Below, piece by piece: positions 1 through 9,262 of a stretch of DNA of 9,262 nt. This DNA is from a virus (lineage: Duplodnaviria > Heunggongvirae > Uroviricota > Caudoviricetes). The position numbers were made by a program, and so were the translations under genes. Positions within the stretch are counted from its first letter, which is position 1. Each line of letters begins with the position of its first letter. The notes beneath the pieces are model-generated. The model saw only the letters and a program-made list of their open reading frames with translations. It ran no database searches and was not told where the DNA came from. The DNA is taken from IMG/VR virus record IMGVR_UViG_3300011226_000028. The stretch is one strand, 5' to 3'.

Positions 1-4
1 TCAT
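1..4 (-). CDS. Start of a leftward gene that runs off the left edge of the window (only the start codon is visible); identity unknown, possibly the next gene of the P4-like left operon
   Basis: Reverse complement of 1-21 reads TGA-AGGAGAACAACACC-ATG-A: stop of the 106-aa ORF, an AGGAG Shine-Dalgarno, about 9 nt spacer, then ATG at 4..2. Confidence 0.3.
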
Positions 5-18
5 GGTGTTGTTCTCCT

Positions 19-339
19 TCAGTGCAGTACCGGCGCTTTTATGTGACGGGCACAGAGTTCATCCATCACAACCAGCCCGAGAAAGGACAGCGACGGCGCG
101 GCCTTCAGGGGGCCGGATTCCATTAAATCTTCCAGCAGGGCACAGGCTATCTGACGCCCTTTTTCCTCACCGTGCTGGCGCAGATAAAAGCCCTCCAGCT
201 CAGCGGCGATGGCCGCCTCCAGTGATTCAAGGGTGAGATGCGGGTAGCGGTGCTGATGTTCGCACACGGTCAGCCAGGCACAGGCGACAGCACGACGGTA
301 AAGGGCTGCGCGTAAGACGGGCGGTAAGGGTGTTTTCAT
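19..339 (-). CDS. Hypothetical protein, 106 aa, in the leftward operon of the P4-like element
   Basis: ORF in the track; ATG at 339 preceded by GGGAGG about 8 nt upstream on the minus strand; GC-rich like neighbouring genes; same strand as adjacent genes. Confidence 0.6.
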
Positions 340-474
340 TTGCTTTCCTCCCTGTGACAGATGACTGCATTCCGTGCCGGTTGCATTAACTGATAAGGCA
401 TATCTGCGTCTCCTGAAGACGTGCGTATCCCTGCGCGAATACGCACATTTAATTTTTCGGGTGTCGTTTTTTAA

Positions 475-930
475 TTACAGATAATTGCGGTAACTGTTAT
501 CCGGGGTGGTTTCCGGGTCAGGCTCCATGCGGGGAATTTCCCGCCATTCCCGCGCCACCGGTGCCGCCCGGCTGGCCGGAACAGTGTCCTGCGGGTAAAT
601 ATCCAGATATTTCTCCCGCCATTTCTGTAATTCCGGGTCTCCGGCCATTTCTTTCAGTACCGCATGCCGGTTTACGGGGCTGCGTTTGAACAGGTCAGGA
701 CGGTCACAGGTAAATTCCCGCAGAAAACGCCCCAGCGGGATGTCTGTGGTGCGCCCGTCAGCGAGGATACGCACAAGGATACTGAATTTACGGCGGTACG
801 GGTTCCAGACAATGTCCGGGCAGCGGTACGGCATTTCCCACGGAATACCGTCTTCCAGAATGCCGACCACGGCCACATCGGGAAAACCGGCAGAACGGTA
901 AATCTCACCGGGCTGGGGAAAATCAAACAT
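475..930 (-). CDS. Hypothetical protein, 151 aa, in the leftward operon
   Basis: ORF in the track; its ATG (930..928) overlaps the stop of the upstream 95-aa ORF in an ATGTTTGA arrangement, suggesting translational coupling. Confidence 0.6.
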   Translation of the reverse strand: MFDFPQPGEIYRSAGFPDVAVVGILEDGIPWEMPYRCPDIVWNPYRRKFSILVRILADGRTTDIPLGRFLREFTCDRPDLFKRSPVNRHAVLKEMAGDPELQKWREKYLDIYPQDTVPASRAAPVAREWREIPRMEPDPETTPDNSYRNYL

Positions 931-1210
931 GCGTCCTGTCTCCCCGGTCTTTCTGCTGGGCGAGAAAATCGCGGCACAGGCCTTTGGCTTTCAGCTCATT
1001 CAGCACAAAATCAATATCTTCATTCAGGTAGCTGAAAATATGCGGAATGTAGAGCTGATGCAGGCCGGAGAGTTCACGGTGAATCAAATCACCCCCAACA
1101 AACTGGGATACGGCGCTGGCGCGGTTGAGCTTATGGTAAGCCTCAATGCTGAGGTGTTCACGGGCGTCATGACGCGCTGAGACGGTCTGAGGGGCTTTTT
1201 TATTACGCAC
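923..1210 (-). CDS. Hypothetical small protein, about 95 aa, probable GTG start
   Basis: Minus-strand frame [40 protein letters not shown]...; GTG at 1210..1208 preceded by GGAGG with a 6-nt spacer; this start overlaps the stop of the upstream 65-aa ORF. Start is inferred, no ATG available in frame. Confidence 0.45.
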
Positions 1211-1400
1211 GGGACACCTCCACCACCGGCAGACGGGCAGCAAGGGAGAGCACATAGTCACGGACAAGGGAACGGCGGGCACTGCGTTCATCACCGGCGA
1301 CGGTGCGAAGCATGCAGATACGGGGATGACGGTCTGCGCGACGGACAGCCGCAAACACAAAGACAAATTCAGGGTGTGAAGGGGTAAGGGTTGTAGCCAT
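1203..1400 (-). CDS. Hypothetical small protein, about 65 aa ([12 protein letters not shown]...VVEVSRA)
   Basis: Internal ATG (1400..1398) of the 211-aa track ORF, preceded by AAGGAGA about 8 nt upstream; stop TAA at 1205..1203 overlaps the GTG of the next gene. The longer 211-aa version is rejected. Confidence 0.35.
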
Positions 1401-1789
1401 AAGGCAGTCTCCTTCGAGTAGCAAATAACTGCTATCGCCGGAGTTCTCACGCTCGATGGCGATAGCCCAGACGGGGGTGAGAATACCGGCCTCGAAGAAT
1501 ACCGGCCAGCCCGGAGGCTGCCCCGCCTGAGCTACCATTGACTCAGTGGCATAACATGCGATTGCGAACAGGATCATACCTGCACGGCAAACCACACGCC
1601 ACACCATAATCTGGCGCTCTGTGGCGTTGATTGCGACACAAAAAAAGACGCATGGCGCGTCATATGTCGCCTTCGAGTTACACGGGTTCTCACGCCCGGC
1701 TGCCGATTTTGCGGCAGCGGAAAAACTATATCCGCAAATGCCGGAAAAAGGCAAGCCAGAAAAAGGGAGTTTTTGCAGAGCGGGCATCA

Positions 1790-2056
1790 TCATGCGTCGT
1801 ACCCCCGTTTGCGTCCGGCAATGCGCCCGGCCATCCATGCGGTGATTTCAGAGTGCAGCCAGGCCACATTTTTACCGCCAAGACTCACCTGCGGCGGAAA
1901 TTCCCCCTTACGGATGAGTTCATAGATGGTCGAGCGTGACAGGCCGCACAGGTGCATCACTTCCGGCAGACGTAAAAAACGCTCCTGCGTGATGTCCGGC
2001 AGCGGCATCAGTGGCGTCACAGGGGCAGGAGACGGGGAAGAAAAAACAGCTTGCAT
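1790..2056 (-). CDS. vis: AlpA/Vis-family small DNA-binding regulator (P4 Vis-like excision/regulatory protein), 88 aa
   Basis: Motif [27 protein letters not shown] is typical of AlpA-family helix-turn-helix prophage regulators; 88 aa as I recall for P4 Vis (orf88); GAGG Shine-Dalgarno about 8 nt upstream; position at the head of the leftward operon, divergent from sid. Confidence 0.7.
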
Positions 2057-2093
2057 CGGGCTACCTCGTTAATGTCCATACAGCACCGGATAA

Positions 2094-2103
2094 NNNNNNN
2101 NNN
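2094..2103. other. Run of 10 N (unknown or masked bases) in the intergenic region upstream of the vis-like gene
   Basis: Literal n characters in the sequence. Confidence 1.
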
Positions 2104-2324
2104 CGCTTTATTTTGTGAATATTTTCAGCAGACGCAACAGGGGGGATTTGTTCCGGTAGCCTTACAATGGCTGTGTGTTTTTTATCCATCTGGACTGGAA
2201 GGGTCTCAAAGGGTTCTGAAGGACCTGGAATTTTTTATAGTGAAATACAAATTGTTTTTTCTTATTTATTTCAGTGAATTAATAAAAATAAAAAGTAATA
2301 AACAGCACAAAAAGTCCATGAGCG

Positions 2325-2429
2325 GGTGAACAGTGGTGAACAGACGGTGAACAGTCATTACTGCGATTGTTCACCCTTTAACTTACTGTATTACTTATCT
2401 TTTTTATTAAGGTGAACAGAGGTGAACAG
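2325..2429. repeat. Iteron cluster resembling the P4 crr/ori-type alpha-protein binding repeats (octamer TGTTCACC)
   Basis: GGTGAACAG (reverse complement CTGTTCACC) occurs five times directly (2325-2333, 2335-2343, 2346-2354, 2411-2419, 2421-2429), plus one inverted copy TGTTCACC at 2368-2375; flanked by very AT-rich DNA (2200-2320, 2380-2460). Confidence 0.6.
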
Positions 2430-2508
2430 TAAAATATAAAAAAAACAAACAGTAAGCCGGTTTTTCCTGCGACCTTTTCCTGGCTTGCCGGTCTGAGGAT
2501 GAGTCTCC

Positions 2509-2526
2509 TGTGTCAGGGCTGGCACA
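2509..2526 (+). promoter_or_regulatory. Putative late promoter activator site (TGT-N12-ACA dyad) of the sid promoter
   Basis: TGT gtcagggctggc ACA at 2509-2526, about 80 bp upstream of the sid ATG, consistent with the P2/P4 late-promoter element bound by Ogr/Delta and centred near -55. Confidence 0.5.
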
Positions 2527-2598
2527 TCTGCAATGCGTCGTGTTGCTGTCCGGTGTACGTCACAATTTTCTCAACCTGAAGTGACGAGGAGCCGGAAA

Positions 2599-3333
2599 AT
2601 GTCTGACAACACCATCCCTGAATATCTGCAACCCGCACTGGCACAACTGGAAAAGGCCAGAGCCGCCCACCTTGAGAACGCCCGCCTGATGGATGAGACC
2701 GTCACGGCCATTGAACGGGCAGAGCAGGAAAAAAATGCGCTGACGCAGGCCGACGGAAACGACGCTGACGACTGGCGCACGGCCTTTCGTGCAGCCGGTG
2801 GTGTCCTGAGCGACGAGCTGAAACAGCGCCACATTGAGCGCGTGGCACGCCGGGAGCTGGTACAGGAATATGACAATCTGGCCGTGGTGCTGAATTTTGA
2901 ACGCGAACGCCTGAAAGGGGCGTGTGACAGCACGGCCACCGCCTACCGGAAGGCACATCATCACCTTCTGAGTCTGTATGCAGAGCATGAGCTGGAACAC
3001 GCCCTGAATGAAACCTGTGAGGCGCTTGTCCGGGCAATGCATCTGAGCATTCTGGTACAGGAAAATCCGCTCGCCAACACCACCGGCCATCAGGGCTACG
3101 TCGCACCGGAAAAGGCTGTCATGCAGCAGGTGAAATCATCGCTGGAACAGAAAATTAAACAGATGCAAATCAGCCTCACCGGCGAGCCGGTTCTCCGGCT
3201 GACCGGACTGTCAGTGGCAACACTCCCGCACATGGATTATGAGGTGACAGGCACACCGGCACAGCGCAAGGTGTGGCAGGACAAAATAGACCAGCAGGGA
3301 GCAGAGCTGAAGGCCAGAGGACTGCTGTCATGA
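2599..3333 (+). CDS. sid: P4 Sid-like external capsid size-determination scaffold protein, 244 aa
   Basis: ATG at 2599 with GAGGA about 9 nt upstream (the track ORF starts earlier at 2533); MSDNTIPEYLQPALAQLEKARAAH...; position immediately upstream of delta and psu in the conserved sid-delta-psu order; stop overlaps the delta start (ATGA). Confidence 0.8.
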   Translation: MSDNTIPEYLQPALAQLEKARAAHLENARLMDETVTAIERAEQEKNALTQADGNDADDWRTAFRAAGGVLSDELKQRHIERVARRELVQEYDNLAVVLNFERERLKGACDSTATAYRKAHHHLLSLYAEHELEHALNETCEALVRAMHLSILVQENPLANTTGHQGYVAPEKAVMQQVKSSLEQKIKQMQISLTGEPVLRLTGLSVATLPHMDYEVTGTPAQRKVWQDKIDQQGAELKARGLLS

Positions 3334-3830
3334 TTTACTGCCCGTCGTGTGGACATGTTGCTCACACCCGTCGCGCACATTTCATGGACGATGGCACCAA
3401 GATAATGATTGCACAGTGCCGGAATATTTATTGCTCTGCGACATTTGAAGCGAGTGAAAGCTTTTTCTCTGACTGTAAAGATTCAGGAATGGAATACATT
3501 TCAGGCAAACAGAGATACCGCGATTCACTGACGTCAGCCTCCGGCAGTATGAAACGCCCGAAAAGAATGCTTGTTACCGGATATTGTTGTCGGAGATGTA
3601 AAGGCCTTGCACTGTCAAGAACATCGCGGCGTCTGTCTCAGGAAGTCACCGAACGTTTTTATGTGTGCACGGATCCGGGCTGTGGTCTGGTGTTTAAAAC
3701 GCTTCAGACCATCAACCGCTTCATTGTCCGCCCGGTCACACCGGACGAACTGGCAGAATGCCTGCATGAAAAACAGGAACTGCCGCCAGTACGGTTAAAA
3801 ACACAATCATATTCGCTGCGTCTGGAATGA
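3330..3830 (+). CDS. delta: P4 Delta-like late transcription activator (two tandem Ogr-type zinc-finger domains), 166 aa
   Basis: Begins MIYCPSCGHVAHTRRAHF... (Ogr-like Cys cluster) and contains a second copy ...YCCRRCKGLALSRTSRRL...YVCTDPGCG; ATG overlaps the sid stop; lies between sid and psu. Confidence 0.8.
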   Translation: MIYCPSCGHVAHTRRAHFMDDGTKIMIAQCRNIYCSATFEASESFFSDCKDSGMEYISGKQRYRDSLTSASGSMKRPKRMLVTGYCCRRCKGLALSRTSRRLSQEVTERFYVCTDPGCGLVFKTLQTINRFIVRPVTPDELAECLHEKQELPPVRLKTQSYSLRLE

Positions 3831-3903
3831 GGGCTGCCGGTTAACACCGGCCGTCGCCGCACACCGTATTTTTATTCTTCAGCATGATGAGAAAGAGATA
3901 ACG

Positions 3904-4139
3904 ATGGAAAGCACAGCCTTACAGCAGGCCTTTGACACCTGTCAGAATAACAAAGCAGCATGGCTGCAACGCAAAAATGAGCTGGCAGCGGCCGAACAGG
4001 AATACCTGCGGCTTCTGTCAGGAGAAGGCAGAAACGTCAGTCGCCTGGACGAATTACGCAATATTATCGAAGTCAGAAAATGGCAGGTGAATCAGGCCGC
4101 CAGTCGTTATATTCGTTCGCATGAAGCCGTTCAGCACAT
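3904..4139 (+). pseudogene. psu: psu (P4 polarity suppression / capsid decoration, Rho inhibitor), 5' fragment interrupted by IS3
   Basis: MESTALQQAFDTCQNNKAAWLQRKNELAAAEQEY...HEAVQHI then runs directly into the IS3 terminal inverted repeat at 4140. Confidence 0.8.
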
Positions 4140-4169
4140 TGATCCTACCCACGTAATATGGACACAGGC

Positions 4170-5036
4170 CTAAGCGAGGTTCTGGTTTTCAAATTGTTCC
4201 GGACTGAGGCCGCCACACCAACTGTGCCGCCGCCACCGATTGTAATCACATTCGATATAATTAAACACCGTTGCCCGCATTATTTCCCGGCTGATAAAGT
4301 GTTCTCCATGGATACATTCCACTTTCAGCGAATGAAAGAAGCTTTCCACGCAGGCATTATCGTAGCAGCAACCTTTTGCGCTCATACTTCCACGCAGATT
4401 ATGCCGCTTCAGTTGCGCCTGATAATCTGCTGAACAGTACTGGCCTCCACGGTCCGTGTGAACGATAACGTTCCGGGGCCTCTTACGCCGCCACAGCGCC
4501 ATCTGCAGGGCATCGCAGGCCAGTTGCGCCGTCATGCGTGGCGACATTGACCAGCCAATAACGGCACGTGACCACAGGTCAATGACCACTGCCAGATACA
4601 GCCAGCCTTCATCTGTACGTAAGTACGTGATGTCTCCTGCCCACTTCTGGTTCGGGCCACTGGCGTAAAAATCCTGCTCCAACAGATTTTCTGACACAGG
4701 CAGGCCGTGTGCGCGGTAGCTGACCGGGCTGAACTTCCGGGAGGCCTTTGCCCTCAGTCCCTGACGGCGCAGGCTTGCCGCCACGGTTTTTACGTTAAAG
4801 GGGTAACCCTGAGCACGCAGTTCATCCGTCAGGCGTGGGGCACCGTAACGCTGTTTTGACCGGGTAAAAGCCGCGAGGACAACGCTGTCGCAGTGTTGGC
4901 GGAACTGCTGACGCGTGCTTATCCTTGTCCGCCGCTGACACCACGTATACCAGCCGCTGCGGGCCACCCGGAGCACGCGGCACATTGCTTTGATGCTGAA
5001 CTCAGCCTGATGTTTTTCAATAAAGACATACTTCAT
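4170..5036 (-). CDS. insF: IS3 OrfB (DDE transposase catalytic component; normally made as an OrfAB fusion by -1 frameshifting)
   Basis: 288-aa ORF with DDE-type motifs ([27 protein letters not shown]); overlaps orfA in the -1 frame as in the IS3 family. Confidence 0.85.
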
Positions 5037-5341
5037 TTCAGGCGCTTCGCGAAGTATGTCGCGGCCTTTTGGAGGATAGCCAGCTCTTCATCCCGTTCTG
5101 CCAGCTGGCGTTTGAGACGTGCAATCTCGGTAGACATCTCCAGTTCACGTTCAGAAGACGTCTGCTGATTTTGCTGTTTACTGCGCCAGTTGTAGAGCTG
5201 TGATTCATACAGGCTGAGTTCACGGGCTGCGGCAGTAACACCGATGCGTTCAGCAAGCTTCAGGGCTTCACTGCGAAATTCAGGCGAATGCTGTTTACGG
5301 GGTTTTTTACTGGTTGATACTGTTTTTGTCATGTGAGTCAC
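5033..5341 (-). CDS. insE: IS3 OrfA (helix-turn-helix transposase N-terminal component)
   Basis: [52 protein letters not shown]... matches IS3 OrfA as I recall it; leucine-zipper-like C-terminus; stop overlaps the orfB ATG (ATGA). Confidence 0.85.
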
Positions 5342-5396
5342 CTCTGACTGAGAGTTTACTCACTTAGCCGCGTGTCCACTATTGCTGGGTAAGATC

Positions 5397-5737
5397 ACAT
5401 CAGCATCCGCGACCGGCTGAATGATTTTATGCAGCAGCACGGCACAGTACTGGCGGCCGCACTGGCACCGGAGCTGATGGGCTACAGTGAGCTGACGGCC
5501 ATTGCCCGAAACTGTGCCATACAGCGTGCCACAGATGCCCTGCGTGAAGCCCTCCTGTCCTGGCTTGCGAAGGGGGAAAAAATTAATTATTCCGCACAGG
5601 ATAGCGACATTTTAACGACCATCGGATTCAGGCCTGACGCGGCTTCGGTGGATGACAGCCGTGAAAAATTCACCCCTGCGCAGAACATGATTTTTTCGCG
5701 TAAAAGTGCGCAACTGGCATCACGTCAGTCTGTGTAA
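5397..5737 (+). pseudogene. psu: psu, 3' fragment downstream of the IS3 insertion
   Basis: In-frame translation from about 5402 reads SIRDRLNDFMQQHGTVLAAALAPELMGYSELTAIARN...ASRQSV; the track ORF 5429..5737 is its ATG-initiated portion. Confidence 0.75.
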
Positions 5738-5772
5738 AATTCCCCGAAAATCCGCCTGTTTTTACTGAAAAA

Positions 5773-5799
5773 AGCCATGCATCGATAAGGTGCATGGCT
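5773..5799 (+). terminator. Putative intrinsic (possibly bidirectional) terminator hairpin downstream of psu
   Basis: Perfect 9-bp stem AGCCATGCA / TGCATGGCT with a 9-nt loop, preceded by an A run and followed by TT...GTTTT. Confidence 0.4.
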
Positions 5800-5901
5800 T
5801 TGCATGCGTTTTCCTGCCTCATTTTCTGCAGACCGCGCCATTCCCGGCGCGGCCTGAGCGTGTCAGTGCAACTGCATTAAAACCGCCCCACAAAGCGGGC
5901 G

Positions 5902-5920
5902 GGCGAGGCGGGGAAAGCAC
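5902..5920. other. P2/P4-type cos site (19-nt cohesive-end sequence)
   Basis: GGCGAGGCGGGGAAAGCAC matches the P2/P4 cohesive-end sequence as I recall it; GC-rich context, located just past psu as in P4. Confidence 0.6.
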
Positions 5921-6016
5921 TGCGCGCAAAAGGGGGGGCTATTAAATTTTTCTCTGGCTTGATGAATGATAACCAAACCAGAGAGGGCATGAGCTTTACG
6001 GAGTTTTATCAAGTAA

Positions 6017-7779
6017 TTATTGCGATGCGTCTTCTTTTAAAGCGATGCTTTGTTCTAAAGCTTCTTTTATGCGTTTAACGCATTCTGTTAGTTCAATTAT
6101 GGCTCCGCGTCGAAAAGAACTGTTAATTTTTTTATGATGAGCGTTTATGGCTGAATGTAGCTTCTTAAGGTATGGTAGTTCAGCAGAAAGGTAGTCCGCA
6201 AGATTTGAGAAGTTATAGAGTGATGATAGATGGTTTGAAAACAACTGAATATCGCGAATGGACCAAGTGTTTTTTATTCCATGTATGATTAGGTTTACAT
6301 CTAATGTTTCAAGTGGATTAAATTTGAATTTTGATTGATAAATATCCATATCAATAGCACTCCAACCGTTAACATTCATTTTTTCTTTCAATTCTTTTAT
6401 TTTCTCCTCCTTTATTATATCGCAATATTTATCAAGGAAGTAATTATGAAGTTCATTTCCTTCTCTCCTTAATATATGTGGTGGAATATTATCAATGTTG
6501 GGATTTGATTCTAGGAAATATTCTTTTATTTCTTCATTACTAAAGCTACGTTTGTTTTTTTCAATGGTTTTGTTGGTTAACCCTCTTATGCGAGGGATGT
6601 ATTTTGATTTTGAGAGTCTAATATAGTTGTTTGTAGCGATTAGCCAAGTAGATAGTGTCGGTGATGAAGTTTTTAGTATTACTTTTTTAATTTCATCCAA
6701 ATAATCATTTTCAGGTATATTATACCATTCCGGTTGTTTTAATGTGGCATAATCACTTTTTTTTAAAGGTTCTTGTGAATTGAATATGTATGGAATTATA
6801 TCCTTTTGAGATATCTCATTAAAACAATATGGAACCATTAAGTTGTTATAAGTCATATGAGCAGTGATATTTAAAAGGTTACTCTCTTCTTCGCTTATTT
6901 TATCTGGATCATTCTCAGATGAAGTCGTAAGTGTTTTGAAAGAAGATGTGATATAATTATGATGAAAATCATTCTCTTGATATGAAAATTTCTCTTTTAG
7001 TATTATATGAGCACAAAGTGAAGTGACTAGGTTTTTGATGTCTATATCAGAGATTTTTTGCTCAGGTTCTTGTTTTTCAAAAAGAGGTGTCAATTTTGAA
7101 ATTACTCTATTAATAATTCGTAGGTTTGTTTCTTCGAACCCAATAATAACCTGAGTGATTAAATATTTATGTCTCTCTTCTAATGGAGCCAGTTTTTGCT
7201 CTAATATATCGGTAAGGTTATTAATAGAGAAATATATTTCGTCGCTTACAACTTTTTCTTTATGACTTAATACCTCACTACTCTGCTTTGAAAAGTTACC
7301 CACTAAAATAAAGTCTAACCGATTATCATTTTGATAACTTTGTAGGCAAAAGGTTGCTATTTCATCTCTCAAAGATTGAGGGATTCTTTCTAGATCATCA
7401 ATGACAAAAACNNNNNNNNNNNNNNNNNNNNNNNNNNNNNNGCACCTGAAATGGTAGATATAATTTGTTCTGTCAACTTTCCAGTGCTTTCGTCTTGGGT
7501 TAATGCTGATGCAGCGCTTGAGGTTAAATCCCCAAGTTTTTTTATCTCTGAAGGGGTGTTTAGATACGTTATGCTTAGCATTCTATCTTTAAAATCTTGT
7601 AAACTGTTTAACCCAAGAACAGACAAATAAAAATGACTCGTATCTGAATAAAGTGTTCTAAATTCAGTTCGAAGGAAATATGTCTTACCTACACCCCATT
7701 CCCCATTTATTAATATCAGACCATCACGTTTCTCTTTCAATATACGAATCAATATAGATACTATAGTACCTTTGGTCAT
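6017..7779 (-). CDS. KAP-family P-loop NTPase, about 587 codons, interrupted by a 30-nt N run; candidate anti-phage defence cargo gene
   Basis: Walker A in the KAP-characteristic form GEWGVGKT (N-terminal ORF 7390..7779) and Walker B-like VFVIDDLER just downstream of the gap (extension of ORF 6017..7372); AGGAG with a 5-nt spacer before the ATG at 7779; strongly AT-rich (about 25% GC in a spot count) compared with flanking genes. Confidence 0.7.
7412..7441. other. Run of 30 N (unknown or masked bases) inside the KAP NTPase gene
   Basis: Literal n characters; the reading frames on the two sides differ by one position, so the true gap length is probably not 30 nt. Confidence 1.
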
Positions 7780-7808
7780 AAAAAGCTCCTTTCAAAATTC
7801 CATTATGA

Positions 7809-8984
7809 TTATTTTATTTTTGGATAAAGTAAGTCACTATACCACTGCATCATATGTAATCTTTTCTCTAAATATTGAGCATGATTATAAGTACCTCTTA
7901 TACTGTTTTTATCAACATGTGCTAATTGCATCTCAATCCATGCACTATCAAATCCATGTTCATGTAAGATTGTCGATAATGAATGTCTAAAACCGTGACC
8001 TGTAGCACGTCCTTTGTAACCAAGTAACTCAATTACTTGAGATACGCTTTCTTTTGAAATTGGTTTGCTACGATTGTTCCTTCCAATAAATATGTAGGGG
8101 TAATGGCCGGTAATAGGCTTGAGTTGTTCGAAAAGGGCAATTACCTGAGTAGATAAAGGAACAATGTGTGGCCTACGCATTTTCATCCTTTCTGCAGGTA
8201 TTTCCCATATGCCTTTCTCAAGATCAACCTCATTCCAAGTAGCCAAACGCATTTCCTGCGTTCTAACGCCGGTCAGCATAACTATCTTAGTAGCATTTTT
8301 AGTAATGATACTTCCGGTATACGCTTCCAAATCCTGAATGAAATGAGGTAGCTCTTCAGCGGATAAAAAAGGATGATGTTTTTGCTTAGGAACAGCCAGA
8401 GCGATGGCTAAATCAGGCGCAGGATTGTATTCAGCACGGCCAGTTATGATCGCATAGCGGTAGACTTCACCACATCTTTGCCGCACTTTTCTGGTCTTCT
8501 CTAATGCCCCACGCTTTTCTATTCTTCGCAATACTTCGAGCAGTTCTAATGGTTTAATTTCACTGATAGGGCGTTTACCAATGAAAGGGAATACATCTTG
8601 CTCAAAAGTCTTCATAATTTCTTCTCGATAGGCCACCGTCCAGCGGTCAGCTTTGTTGGTATGCCATTCTCGACATATTGCTTCGAAAGAATTTTCTGTT
8701 GATAGCTTTTGAGCGAGTCTTAAAGCTTTGCGTTCCTCTACTGGGTCAATGCCATTAGCAACCTGCTTACGGGCGATGTCACGCTTCTCACGTGCTTCTG
8801 CGAGGCTTACTAAATCATAGCTGCCAAATGACATTAACCGCGCTTTCCCAGCAAATCTGAAACGGAAACGCCAGCCTTTCGTGCCATCTGGATTGATAAG
8901 CAACGACAGACCTTGTCCATCGTTCAATGTGTATGGCTTGTCTTGTGGTTTTGCACGTTTGATCTGTGTATCGGTTAGAGCCAT
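7809..8984 (-). CDS. int: P4-type tyrosine integrase (phage integrase family), 391 aa
   Basis: N-terminus MALTDTQIKRAKPQDKPYTLNDGQGLSLLINPDG... typical of P4-like integrases; C-terminal catalytic region GHGFRHSLSTILHE...GTYNHAQY (R, H-x-x-R, Y); adjacent to the 3' end of a tRNA gene. Confidence 0.9.
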   Translation of the reverse strand: MALTDTQIKRAKPQDKPYTLNDGQGLSLLINPDGTKGWRFRFRFAGKARLMSFGSYDLVSLAEAREKRDIARKQVANGIDPVEERKALRLAQKLSTENSFEAICREWHTNKADRWTVAYREEIMKTFEQDVFPFIGKRPISEIKPLELLEVLRRIEKRGALEKTRKVRQRCGEVYRYAIITGRAEYNPAPDLAIALAVPKQKHHPFLSAEELPHFIQDLEAYTGSIITKNATKIVMLTGVRTQEMRLATWNEVDLEKGIWEIPAERMKMRRPHIVPLSTQVIALFEQLKPITGHYPYIFIGRNNRSKPISKESVSQVIELLGYKGRATGHGFRHSLSTILHEHGFDSAWIEMQLAHVDKNSIRGTYNHAQYLEKRLHMMQWYSDLLYPKIK

Positions 8985-9036
8985 GTGTATAACTGAAAAC
9001 TATGTATAAAAAATCTATACACATTACTATACATAT
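8983..9036. promoter_or_regulatory. Cluster of TATACAYAT 9-mers in both orientations over the int start and upstream region; candidate Int/Vis or repressor binding sites and int promoter
   Basis: ATGTGTATA (8983-8991), TATGTATA (9001-9008), TATACACAT (9016-9024) and TATACATAT (9028-9036); AT-rich. Confidence 0.4.
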
Positions 9037-9146
9037 TTTTCGCGGATTCAGGGAGATGATCTCGGACTATTACGGACAAGCTGATTATTCATCGCATTGA
9101 ATATAAATGATTTTATGGAGTGTCTCGGAACTGGCTGGATGAGGTT

Positions 9147-9241
9147 TGGCGGAAGATCACAGGAGTCGAACCTGCCCGGGACCGCTGGCGGCCCCAACTG
9201 GATTTGAAGTCCAGCCGCCTCACCGGAGACGACGATCTTCC
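9147..9241 (-). tRNA. selC: tRNA-Sec (selenocysteine tRNA, selC), 95 nt, serving as the integration site
   Basis: Reverse complement reads GGAAGATCGTCGTCTCCGGTGAGGCGGCTGGACTTCAAATCCAGTTGGGGCCGCCAGCGGTCCCGGGCAGGTTCGACTCCTGTGATCTTCCGCCA, matching the E. coli selC tRNA as I recall it, including the long variable arm and 3' CCA; the integrase gene lies beyond its 3' end. Confidence 0.9.
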
Positions 9242-9262
9242 GCGCCTCGATTGCTACATGGA

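Follow-up and report, generated by a model that had tools for sequence, protein, structure and literature searches.

Satellite context of the interrupted gene

The window (the whole stretch of 9,262 nucleotides that was analysed) comprises, in this order, a left operon, an ORF in the position of sid, delta, psu interrupted by an IS3, a cos-type sequence, a P-loop NTPase gene, an integrase gene and tRNA-Sec. The integrase, Psu, Delta and Ash domains together with tRNA-Sec and cos identify the element as a P4-like satellite. The NTPase gene (6017..7779, minus strand) is the single cargo of the variable cos/psu-int hotspot of this satellite, which is integrated at tRNA-Sec. One border of the hotspot is the P4-type tyrosine integrase (7809..8984, minus strand), with Arm-DNA-bind_3, Phage_int_M and Phage_integrase domains, and the integration site itself is the tRNA-Sec gene selC (9151..9241, minus strand). 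The other border, a short way beyond the end of the ATPase gene on its 3' side, is the P4 cos-type sequence GGCGAGGCGGGGAAAGCAC (5902..5920, plus strand), a string also present in the cloned P4 sequences of Table S2A of Rousset et al. 2022 (PMC9122126), where the cos/psu-int interval was described as a P4 defence hotspot. The G+C content of the NTPase gene is 31% versus about 53% for the satellite core.

The left operon contains genes for DUF5375, a derepression (epsilon-type) protein, an Ash/Icd-like protein and an AlpA-like HTH protein, and the position of P4 sid is occupied by a 266-aa ORF (2533..3333) for which no Pfam match was identified. Three Rfam families were identified above their gathering scores on the minus strand between 1455 and 1731: C4 antisense RNA (1455..1542), isrK (1641..1718) and the c4-a1b1 target (1679..1731). 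There is overlap between these matches and the Ash/Icd-like ORF of the mechanical list (1203..1838), and the C4 antisense RNA borders on the ORF of the derepression protein (923..1450). The three matches presumably represent the P4-type RNA immunity system.

The IS3 (4140..5397, 1,258 bp) is complete, carries its transposase on the minus strand and is inserted in psu with a 3-bp target duplication, CAT. It parts the 5' part of psu from the 3' part (5398..5737, plus strand), which matches positions 85-181 of the 182 of the Pfam Psu profile. The combination of IS3 in psu with the NTPase cargo was identified in none of 5,426 complete E. coli genomes, and a scan of genome contigs gave no match to the psu-IS3 left junction specific to the window. 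The IS3-psu junction is shared by the window with four short-read contigs described below, and it serves as the marker of a common lineage.

Compared with the satellite of strain DAX4 the window is a mosaic: positions 1..4139, with the left operon, the ORF in the place of sid and delta, are 96.4% identical with 19 gap openings, and positions 5396..9262, which extend from the 3' end of psu over the cargo and int to the tRNA, are 99.3-100% identical. Such a pattern fits recombination between core and hotspot modules of satellites. Homologues of the NTPase at 71% identity (Yersinia) and 31% (Serratia fonticola) also adjoin P4-type integrases, at other integration sites, and a 25% homologue in Pseudoalteromonas lies outside the P4 context. 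In the plasmid collection searched no match to the NTPase gene region was identified.

The N runs and the two reading frames

The window contains exactly two runs of N, one of 30 (7412..7441) and one of 10 (2094..2103). The longer run interrupts the minus-strand NTPase gene between Walker A and Walker B, and lies within an interval (7381..7445) that had already been noted in a reading of the sequence only. Walker A is GEWGVGKT (7681..7704, minus strand; residues 26-33), which fits GxxxxGK[ST]. Walker B is VFVIDD, followed by LER (7394..7411, minus strand; residues 125-130), and starts at the first base after the run. The sequence-only reading had placed the gap exactly between the two motifs; it does lie between them, not midway but directly against the first codon of Walker B.

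The N-terminal part of the gene (7442..7779, minus strand) runs from the ATG at 7779 to position 7442 and comprises 338 nt, that is 112 codons (residues 1-112) plus the GC of codon 113, with 0 mismatches to the reference protein. The C-terminal part (6017..7411, minus strand) opens at 7411 with GTT TTT GTC ATT GAT GAT CTA GAA AGA (VFVIDDLER) and encodes residues 125-588 in 464 codons, free of stops until the TAA at 6019..6017, with one private substitution (C at 6535, K417E). The 1,733 known bases of the gene (338 + 1,395 nt) thus contain no stop, no indel and one substitution. Codon starts fall on positions 0 mod 3 in the N-terminal part and 1 mod 3 in the C-terminal part, and the offset by one that had been noted between the flanking frames is therefore real. 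With a spacer of 30 nt the two parts are one base out of register, since only a gap of 1 mod 3 would make them continuous.

The limits earlier given for the two segments have to be redrawn. The N-terminal segment that had been set at 7390..7779 is a mechanical ORF that reads through the Ns to a stop in the wrong frame, the known coding sequence being 7442..7779. The C-terminal segment that had been set at 6017..7372 begins at the first in-frame TTG, which is internal, and homologous coding sequence reaches 7411.

The second run (10 N, 2094..2103) replaces 20 nt, GTCCGTCCGGCTTCGGGTAG, in the two relatives compared there (L001 and L002). Its length thus also disagrees with that of the sequence that it stands for, which indicates that the N lengths in the record of the window are round placeholders and not exact masks. 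In the relatives GTCCGTCCGGCTTCGGGTAG contains a small GC-rich hairpin, CCGGCTTCGG, and the run itself lies a short way upstream of the AlpA-like gene (88 aa) in the left operon.

Length of the gap in relatives and origin of the split

The region is carried by 12 complete E. coli chromosomes at 99.6-99.9% identity. In 11 of them the aligned stretch exceeds its counterpart in the window by 4 nt. In the remaining one, 30COLEC, the excess is 2 nt, owing to two private 1-bp deletions at other sites. A base-by-base comparison covered four of the 12 chromosomes and four short-read contigs, and all eight of these related E. coli sequences contain the same 34 nt at the gap (CCCTGAAAGATCCTTAAGTACATAATCTCTCATT on the plus strand). 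Alignments to the relatives stop at 7411 and resume at 7442, the flanks being collinear up to both edges of the run. In DAX4 and ATCC 8739 exactly 34 nt lie between the flanks found in the window, and the result is a continuous ORF of 588 aa, annotated in both as a single CDS of 1,767 nt (WP_000160301.1, 'AAA family ATPase'). These 34 nt complete codon 113, of which they hold the third base, and add codons 114-124 (A-MRDYVLKDLSG). Counted with a gap of 34 nt, the gene of the window has 588 codons plus the stop, and its product equals WP_000160301.1 apart from K417E.

A sister lineage of the satellite was identified by a look-up of the 102-aa psu 3' fragment among assembled contigs. It comprises four independent Logan contigs (loci L010, L011, L013 and L014) from four sequencing runs: SRR30297914, SRR12516178, ERR14749064 and SRR27008031. 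All of them start within the IS3, 28-30 nt from its right end, which is joined to psu at the target site seen in the window, and from position 5370 (5368 in L014) they equal the window at all known bases except 6535. The overlap is about 3.9 kb (3.5 kb in L014) with 1 mismatch. The four contigs are contiguous across the gap site, contain the same 34 nt and carry an intact gene of 588 aa. In the same kind of look-up no contig was found that encodes the 451-aa C-terminal ORF or the psu-IS3 fusion ORF.

More distant homologues agree with this length. An alignment of 32 sequences at 25-100% identity was used, as the sequence-only reading had advised, for the spacing of the motifs in intact homologues. 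T33 of Walker A and D129 of Walker B are separated by 95 residues in 30 of them (all at least 31% identical), a spacing that predicts 34 missing nucleotides in the window; exceptions are two outliers at 25% identity, with 98 residues. The segment that would lie under the N run is itself conserved: L119 is invariant, and V118, K120, D121 and G124 are conserved in at least 90% of the sequences. In all near-identical copies and all 32 aligned homologues a single ORF continues across the gap site. Two copies in complete genomes are degraded: 30COLEC (L003), where the two 1-bp deletions split the NTPase gene into three annotated ORFs, and PI6 (L004), where about 156 nt at the 3' end of the gene lack a match and the copy is annotated as a partial pseudogene. 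In these two degraded copies out of 12 the lesions lie away from the gap of the window, and both keep the 34 nt.

The split of the gene is thus very probably an artefact of a placeholder 4 nt too short, beneath which lies an intact gene for an ATPase of 588 residues. The 30 Ns would be an assembly or scaffolding placeholder, 4 nt shorter than what it replaced; in its place one would most likely read the 34 nt of every relative compared, and with these restored the two 'ORFs' would become one continuous gene of 588 codons. The offset of one base follows from 30 and 34 being different modulo 3. Several scaffolders write minimum or estimated N runs in round numbers, and the site shares with such gaps the run of Ns, the collinear flanks, the discordant length and a second run of the same kind, with no difference found. 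The arbitrary length that the sequence-only reading had favoured for the run, with one ORF across it, is supported by both the 34 nt (1 mod 3) in the eight relatives and the discordance of the other run. For a run of Ns whose length has no relation to what it replaces, the two frames are expected to disagree in two cases out of three, hence the offset is what a placeholder is expected to produce and is no evidence for a lesion.

A genuine lesion within the bases under the run, all kinds taken together, retains a small share of the probability. A private indel there, of 4 nt or another length, would be invisible in the record of the window, and with its private base at 6535 the window departs at one position from the sister assemblies in which the gap is closed. 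The best surviving form is a genuine frameshift, in which a small indel under the Ns (for example a deletion of 4 nt) would have made the gene a pseudogene split between Walker A and Walker B. The different frames on both sides of the run, the decay of a satellite already damaged by an IS3 in psu and the two degraded copies among the 12 complete genomes speak in its favour, and if the Ns were an exact-length mask the difference between 30 and 34 would be just such a deletion. Against it, both N runs are of round length and the other one is also discordant (10 versus 20 nt), the known bases of the gene are free of lesions, the damage in 30COLEC and PI6 lies elsewhere in the gene, a mismatch of frames is the commoner outcome for an arbitrary placeholder, and the 34 nt are intact in all four sister assemblies that share the IS3 junction. 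Moreover, pseudogenes similar to defence genes are reported to be rare in P4 elements, and the cargo of defective P4 elements stays nearly identical to that of intact copies (PMC13586616). The caveat that a frameshift could be concealed was formally correct for the sequence of the window alone; given the relatives, such a frameshift is now unlikely.

A larger insertion (an IS or another repeat) that broke the assembly at the gap and inactivated the NTPase gene is still less probable, to the point of being hardly credible. Assemblies often break at repeats and the strain has an active IS3, yet a complete IS3 (the one in psu) was assembled through in the window itself, so repeats were no obstacle. 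The flanks also do not end at a target-site duplication but are short of 34 nt of the gene, and the assemblies of the sister lineage are contiguous across the site. Two naturally separate pieces, or pieces joined by programmed ribosomal frameshifting, are the least probable of all and were rejected: the frame offset is the one observation in their favour, whereas the near-identical copies and the 32 homologues are continuous here with conserved residues, the C-terminal piece has neither start codon nor ribosome-binding context at the junction, and Walker B starts at the first base past the Ns.

The substitution at 6535 is a C in the window versus a T in all eight relatives compared, and changes K417 to E. 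An exact look-up of the reconstructed full-length K417E protein in a collection of 15 billion proteins gave no match, by which the private base is unique to the record of the window. Either a true SNP or, in a record of draft quality, an error of base calling could account for it.

The artefact matters chiefly for annotation. At this site an automatic pipeline will report a pseudogene or a pair of fragments, and it may score the satellite as one without intact hotspot cargo. The correct annotation is one gene of 588 codons with an unsequenced stretch of 34 nt, and a frame change across a run of Ns should never be taken as a frameshift unless the length of the run is known to be exact.

The NTPase and known defence proteins

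The product of this single-gene cargo of a defence hotspot is a soluble P-loop NTPase, conserved and with its catalytic motifs intact. In Walker A the residues G26, W28, G29, G31, K32 and T33 are invariant in the 32 homologues, and so are D129, D130, E132 and R133 in the region of Walker B, where VFVIDD fits hhhhD[DE] and lies on a predicted strand (124-129). No transmembrane segment is predicted, the maximum Kyte-Doolittle mean over 19 residues being 1.18 for the whole protein and 0.44 in residues 34-124. Of the Pfam families, AAA_22 passes in the full-length protein with 31.9 bits versus a cut-off of 27, and KAP_NTPase (PF07693) barely reaches its cut-off (20.7 bits versus 20), in an alignment limited to residues 18-45 (about 28, around Walker A). 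Among the 32 homologues AAA_22 matches 30, PF07693 matches all at E-values of about 0.01 or below (best 1.6e-7), and NACHT matches four at E below 0.01; in the NTPase itself NACHT stays below threshold (13.2 bits versus a cut-off of 26.7). Nothing significant was identified in NCBIfam and PHROGs, and nothing meaningful in sequence and profile searches of the PDB.

The AlphaFold2 model has a mean pLDDT of 79 and shows a parallel-sheet ATPase core, a low-confidence helical insert between the Walker motifs (residues 74-119) and a C-terminal half that is all-helical. The predicted layout is Walker A (26-33), the helical insert, Walker B (125-130), an ORC/Cdc6/STAND-like core up to about residue 270 and the all-helical C-terminal half. 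Foldseek against the PDB gave weak, generic AAA+ matches (ORC4/5, Cdc6, RuvBL and NorQ) the best E-value being 8e-5 and the TM values 0.2-0.3. Avs and NLR structures were absent from these matches, and no assignment of effector or sensor follows from them. Domain-profile and structure searches recognised no effector domain in the NTPase, and no TPR, LRR or WD40 repeats were detected.

The gene is not new: it is an already catalogued NTPase of the P4 hotspot, mechanistically uncharacterised. Table S1A of Rousset et al. lists NC_010468 / AAA_22 / WP_000160301, and Table S1B gives the exact sequence as system #11, 'AAA_22/NB-ARC', with 110 occurrences and the note 'NRL-like protein'; the NB-ARC assignment comes from that table alone (PMC9122126). 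Table S2B of the same work contains pFR82 'NOD-1', cloned from ATCC 8739 and placed among the additional tested systems that were not validated, no protection having been seen against the 8 coliphages tested (PMC9122126). The protein of the window is identical to NOD-1 / system #11 at all known residues except K417E and occupies the same cos/psu-int place at tRNA-Sec; differences are the 12 residues under the N run, the psu interrupted by IS3 and the one private substitution. E. coli homologues at 63-67% identity are abundant, in clusters of 80 and 161 members, and may be allelic variants of the same cargo family.

Among defence candidates the PADLOC family PDC-S49, a single-gene phage defence candidate, matches 29 of the 32 homologues over the NTPase half, with a best E-value of 1.3e-21. 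For the protein of the window the match reaches 52 bits and covers profile positions 27-338 of 624 only, the C-terminal halves being not demonstrably related. A full-text literature search for 'PDC-S49' or 'WP_000160301' returned no papers. The protein resembles the KAP NTPases (PF07693) in both motifs, with a GxWGxGKT Walker A and an hhhIDDLER Walker B of the kind usual in that family. Transmembrane helices inserted in the NTPase domain are typical of KAP proteins as originally described, whereas the protein of the window has none and its Pfam match covers the short stretch around Walker A.

The STAND/NLR-like anti-phage NTPases (Avs, bNACHT and TIR-NLR) are resembled in the ORC/Cdc6-like core followed by helical domains, in the location in a defence hotspot and in the 'NLR-like' label of Rousset et al. 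In contrast to them, the NTPase domain starts at about residue 20, with Walker A at 26, so there is no N-terminal effector, and the tripartite layout of effector, NTPase and repeat sensor is not seen, no repeat family or effector fold having been recognised. The balance tips slightly towards a single-protein, NTP-dependent anti-phage sensor, in which the binding and hydrolysis of nucleotide by the two motifs would be linked to the C-terminal domain of helices. The failure of the exact protein to protect against the 8 coliphages, and the lack of a recognisable effector domain, speak against such a function.

The last comparison is with Reve, a single-gene P4 cargo with ATPase and KAP P-loop domains that protects against phages (PMC13586616). 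Both proteins are single-gene cargo of the P4 hotspot, Reve being compared here by its description only. A more specific proposal, somewhat short of probable, is that the NTPase of the window is an effector-less, NTPase-first sensor of KAP/STAND-like type encoded by a single gene. Its C-terminal half would then carry an unrecognised effector or recruit a host factor, its activity would have been missed on the small panel of 2022, and the protein might be Reve itself or a sister of it.
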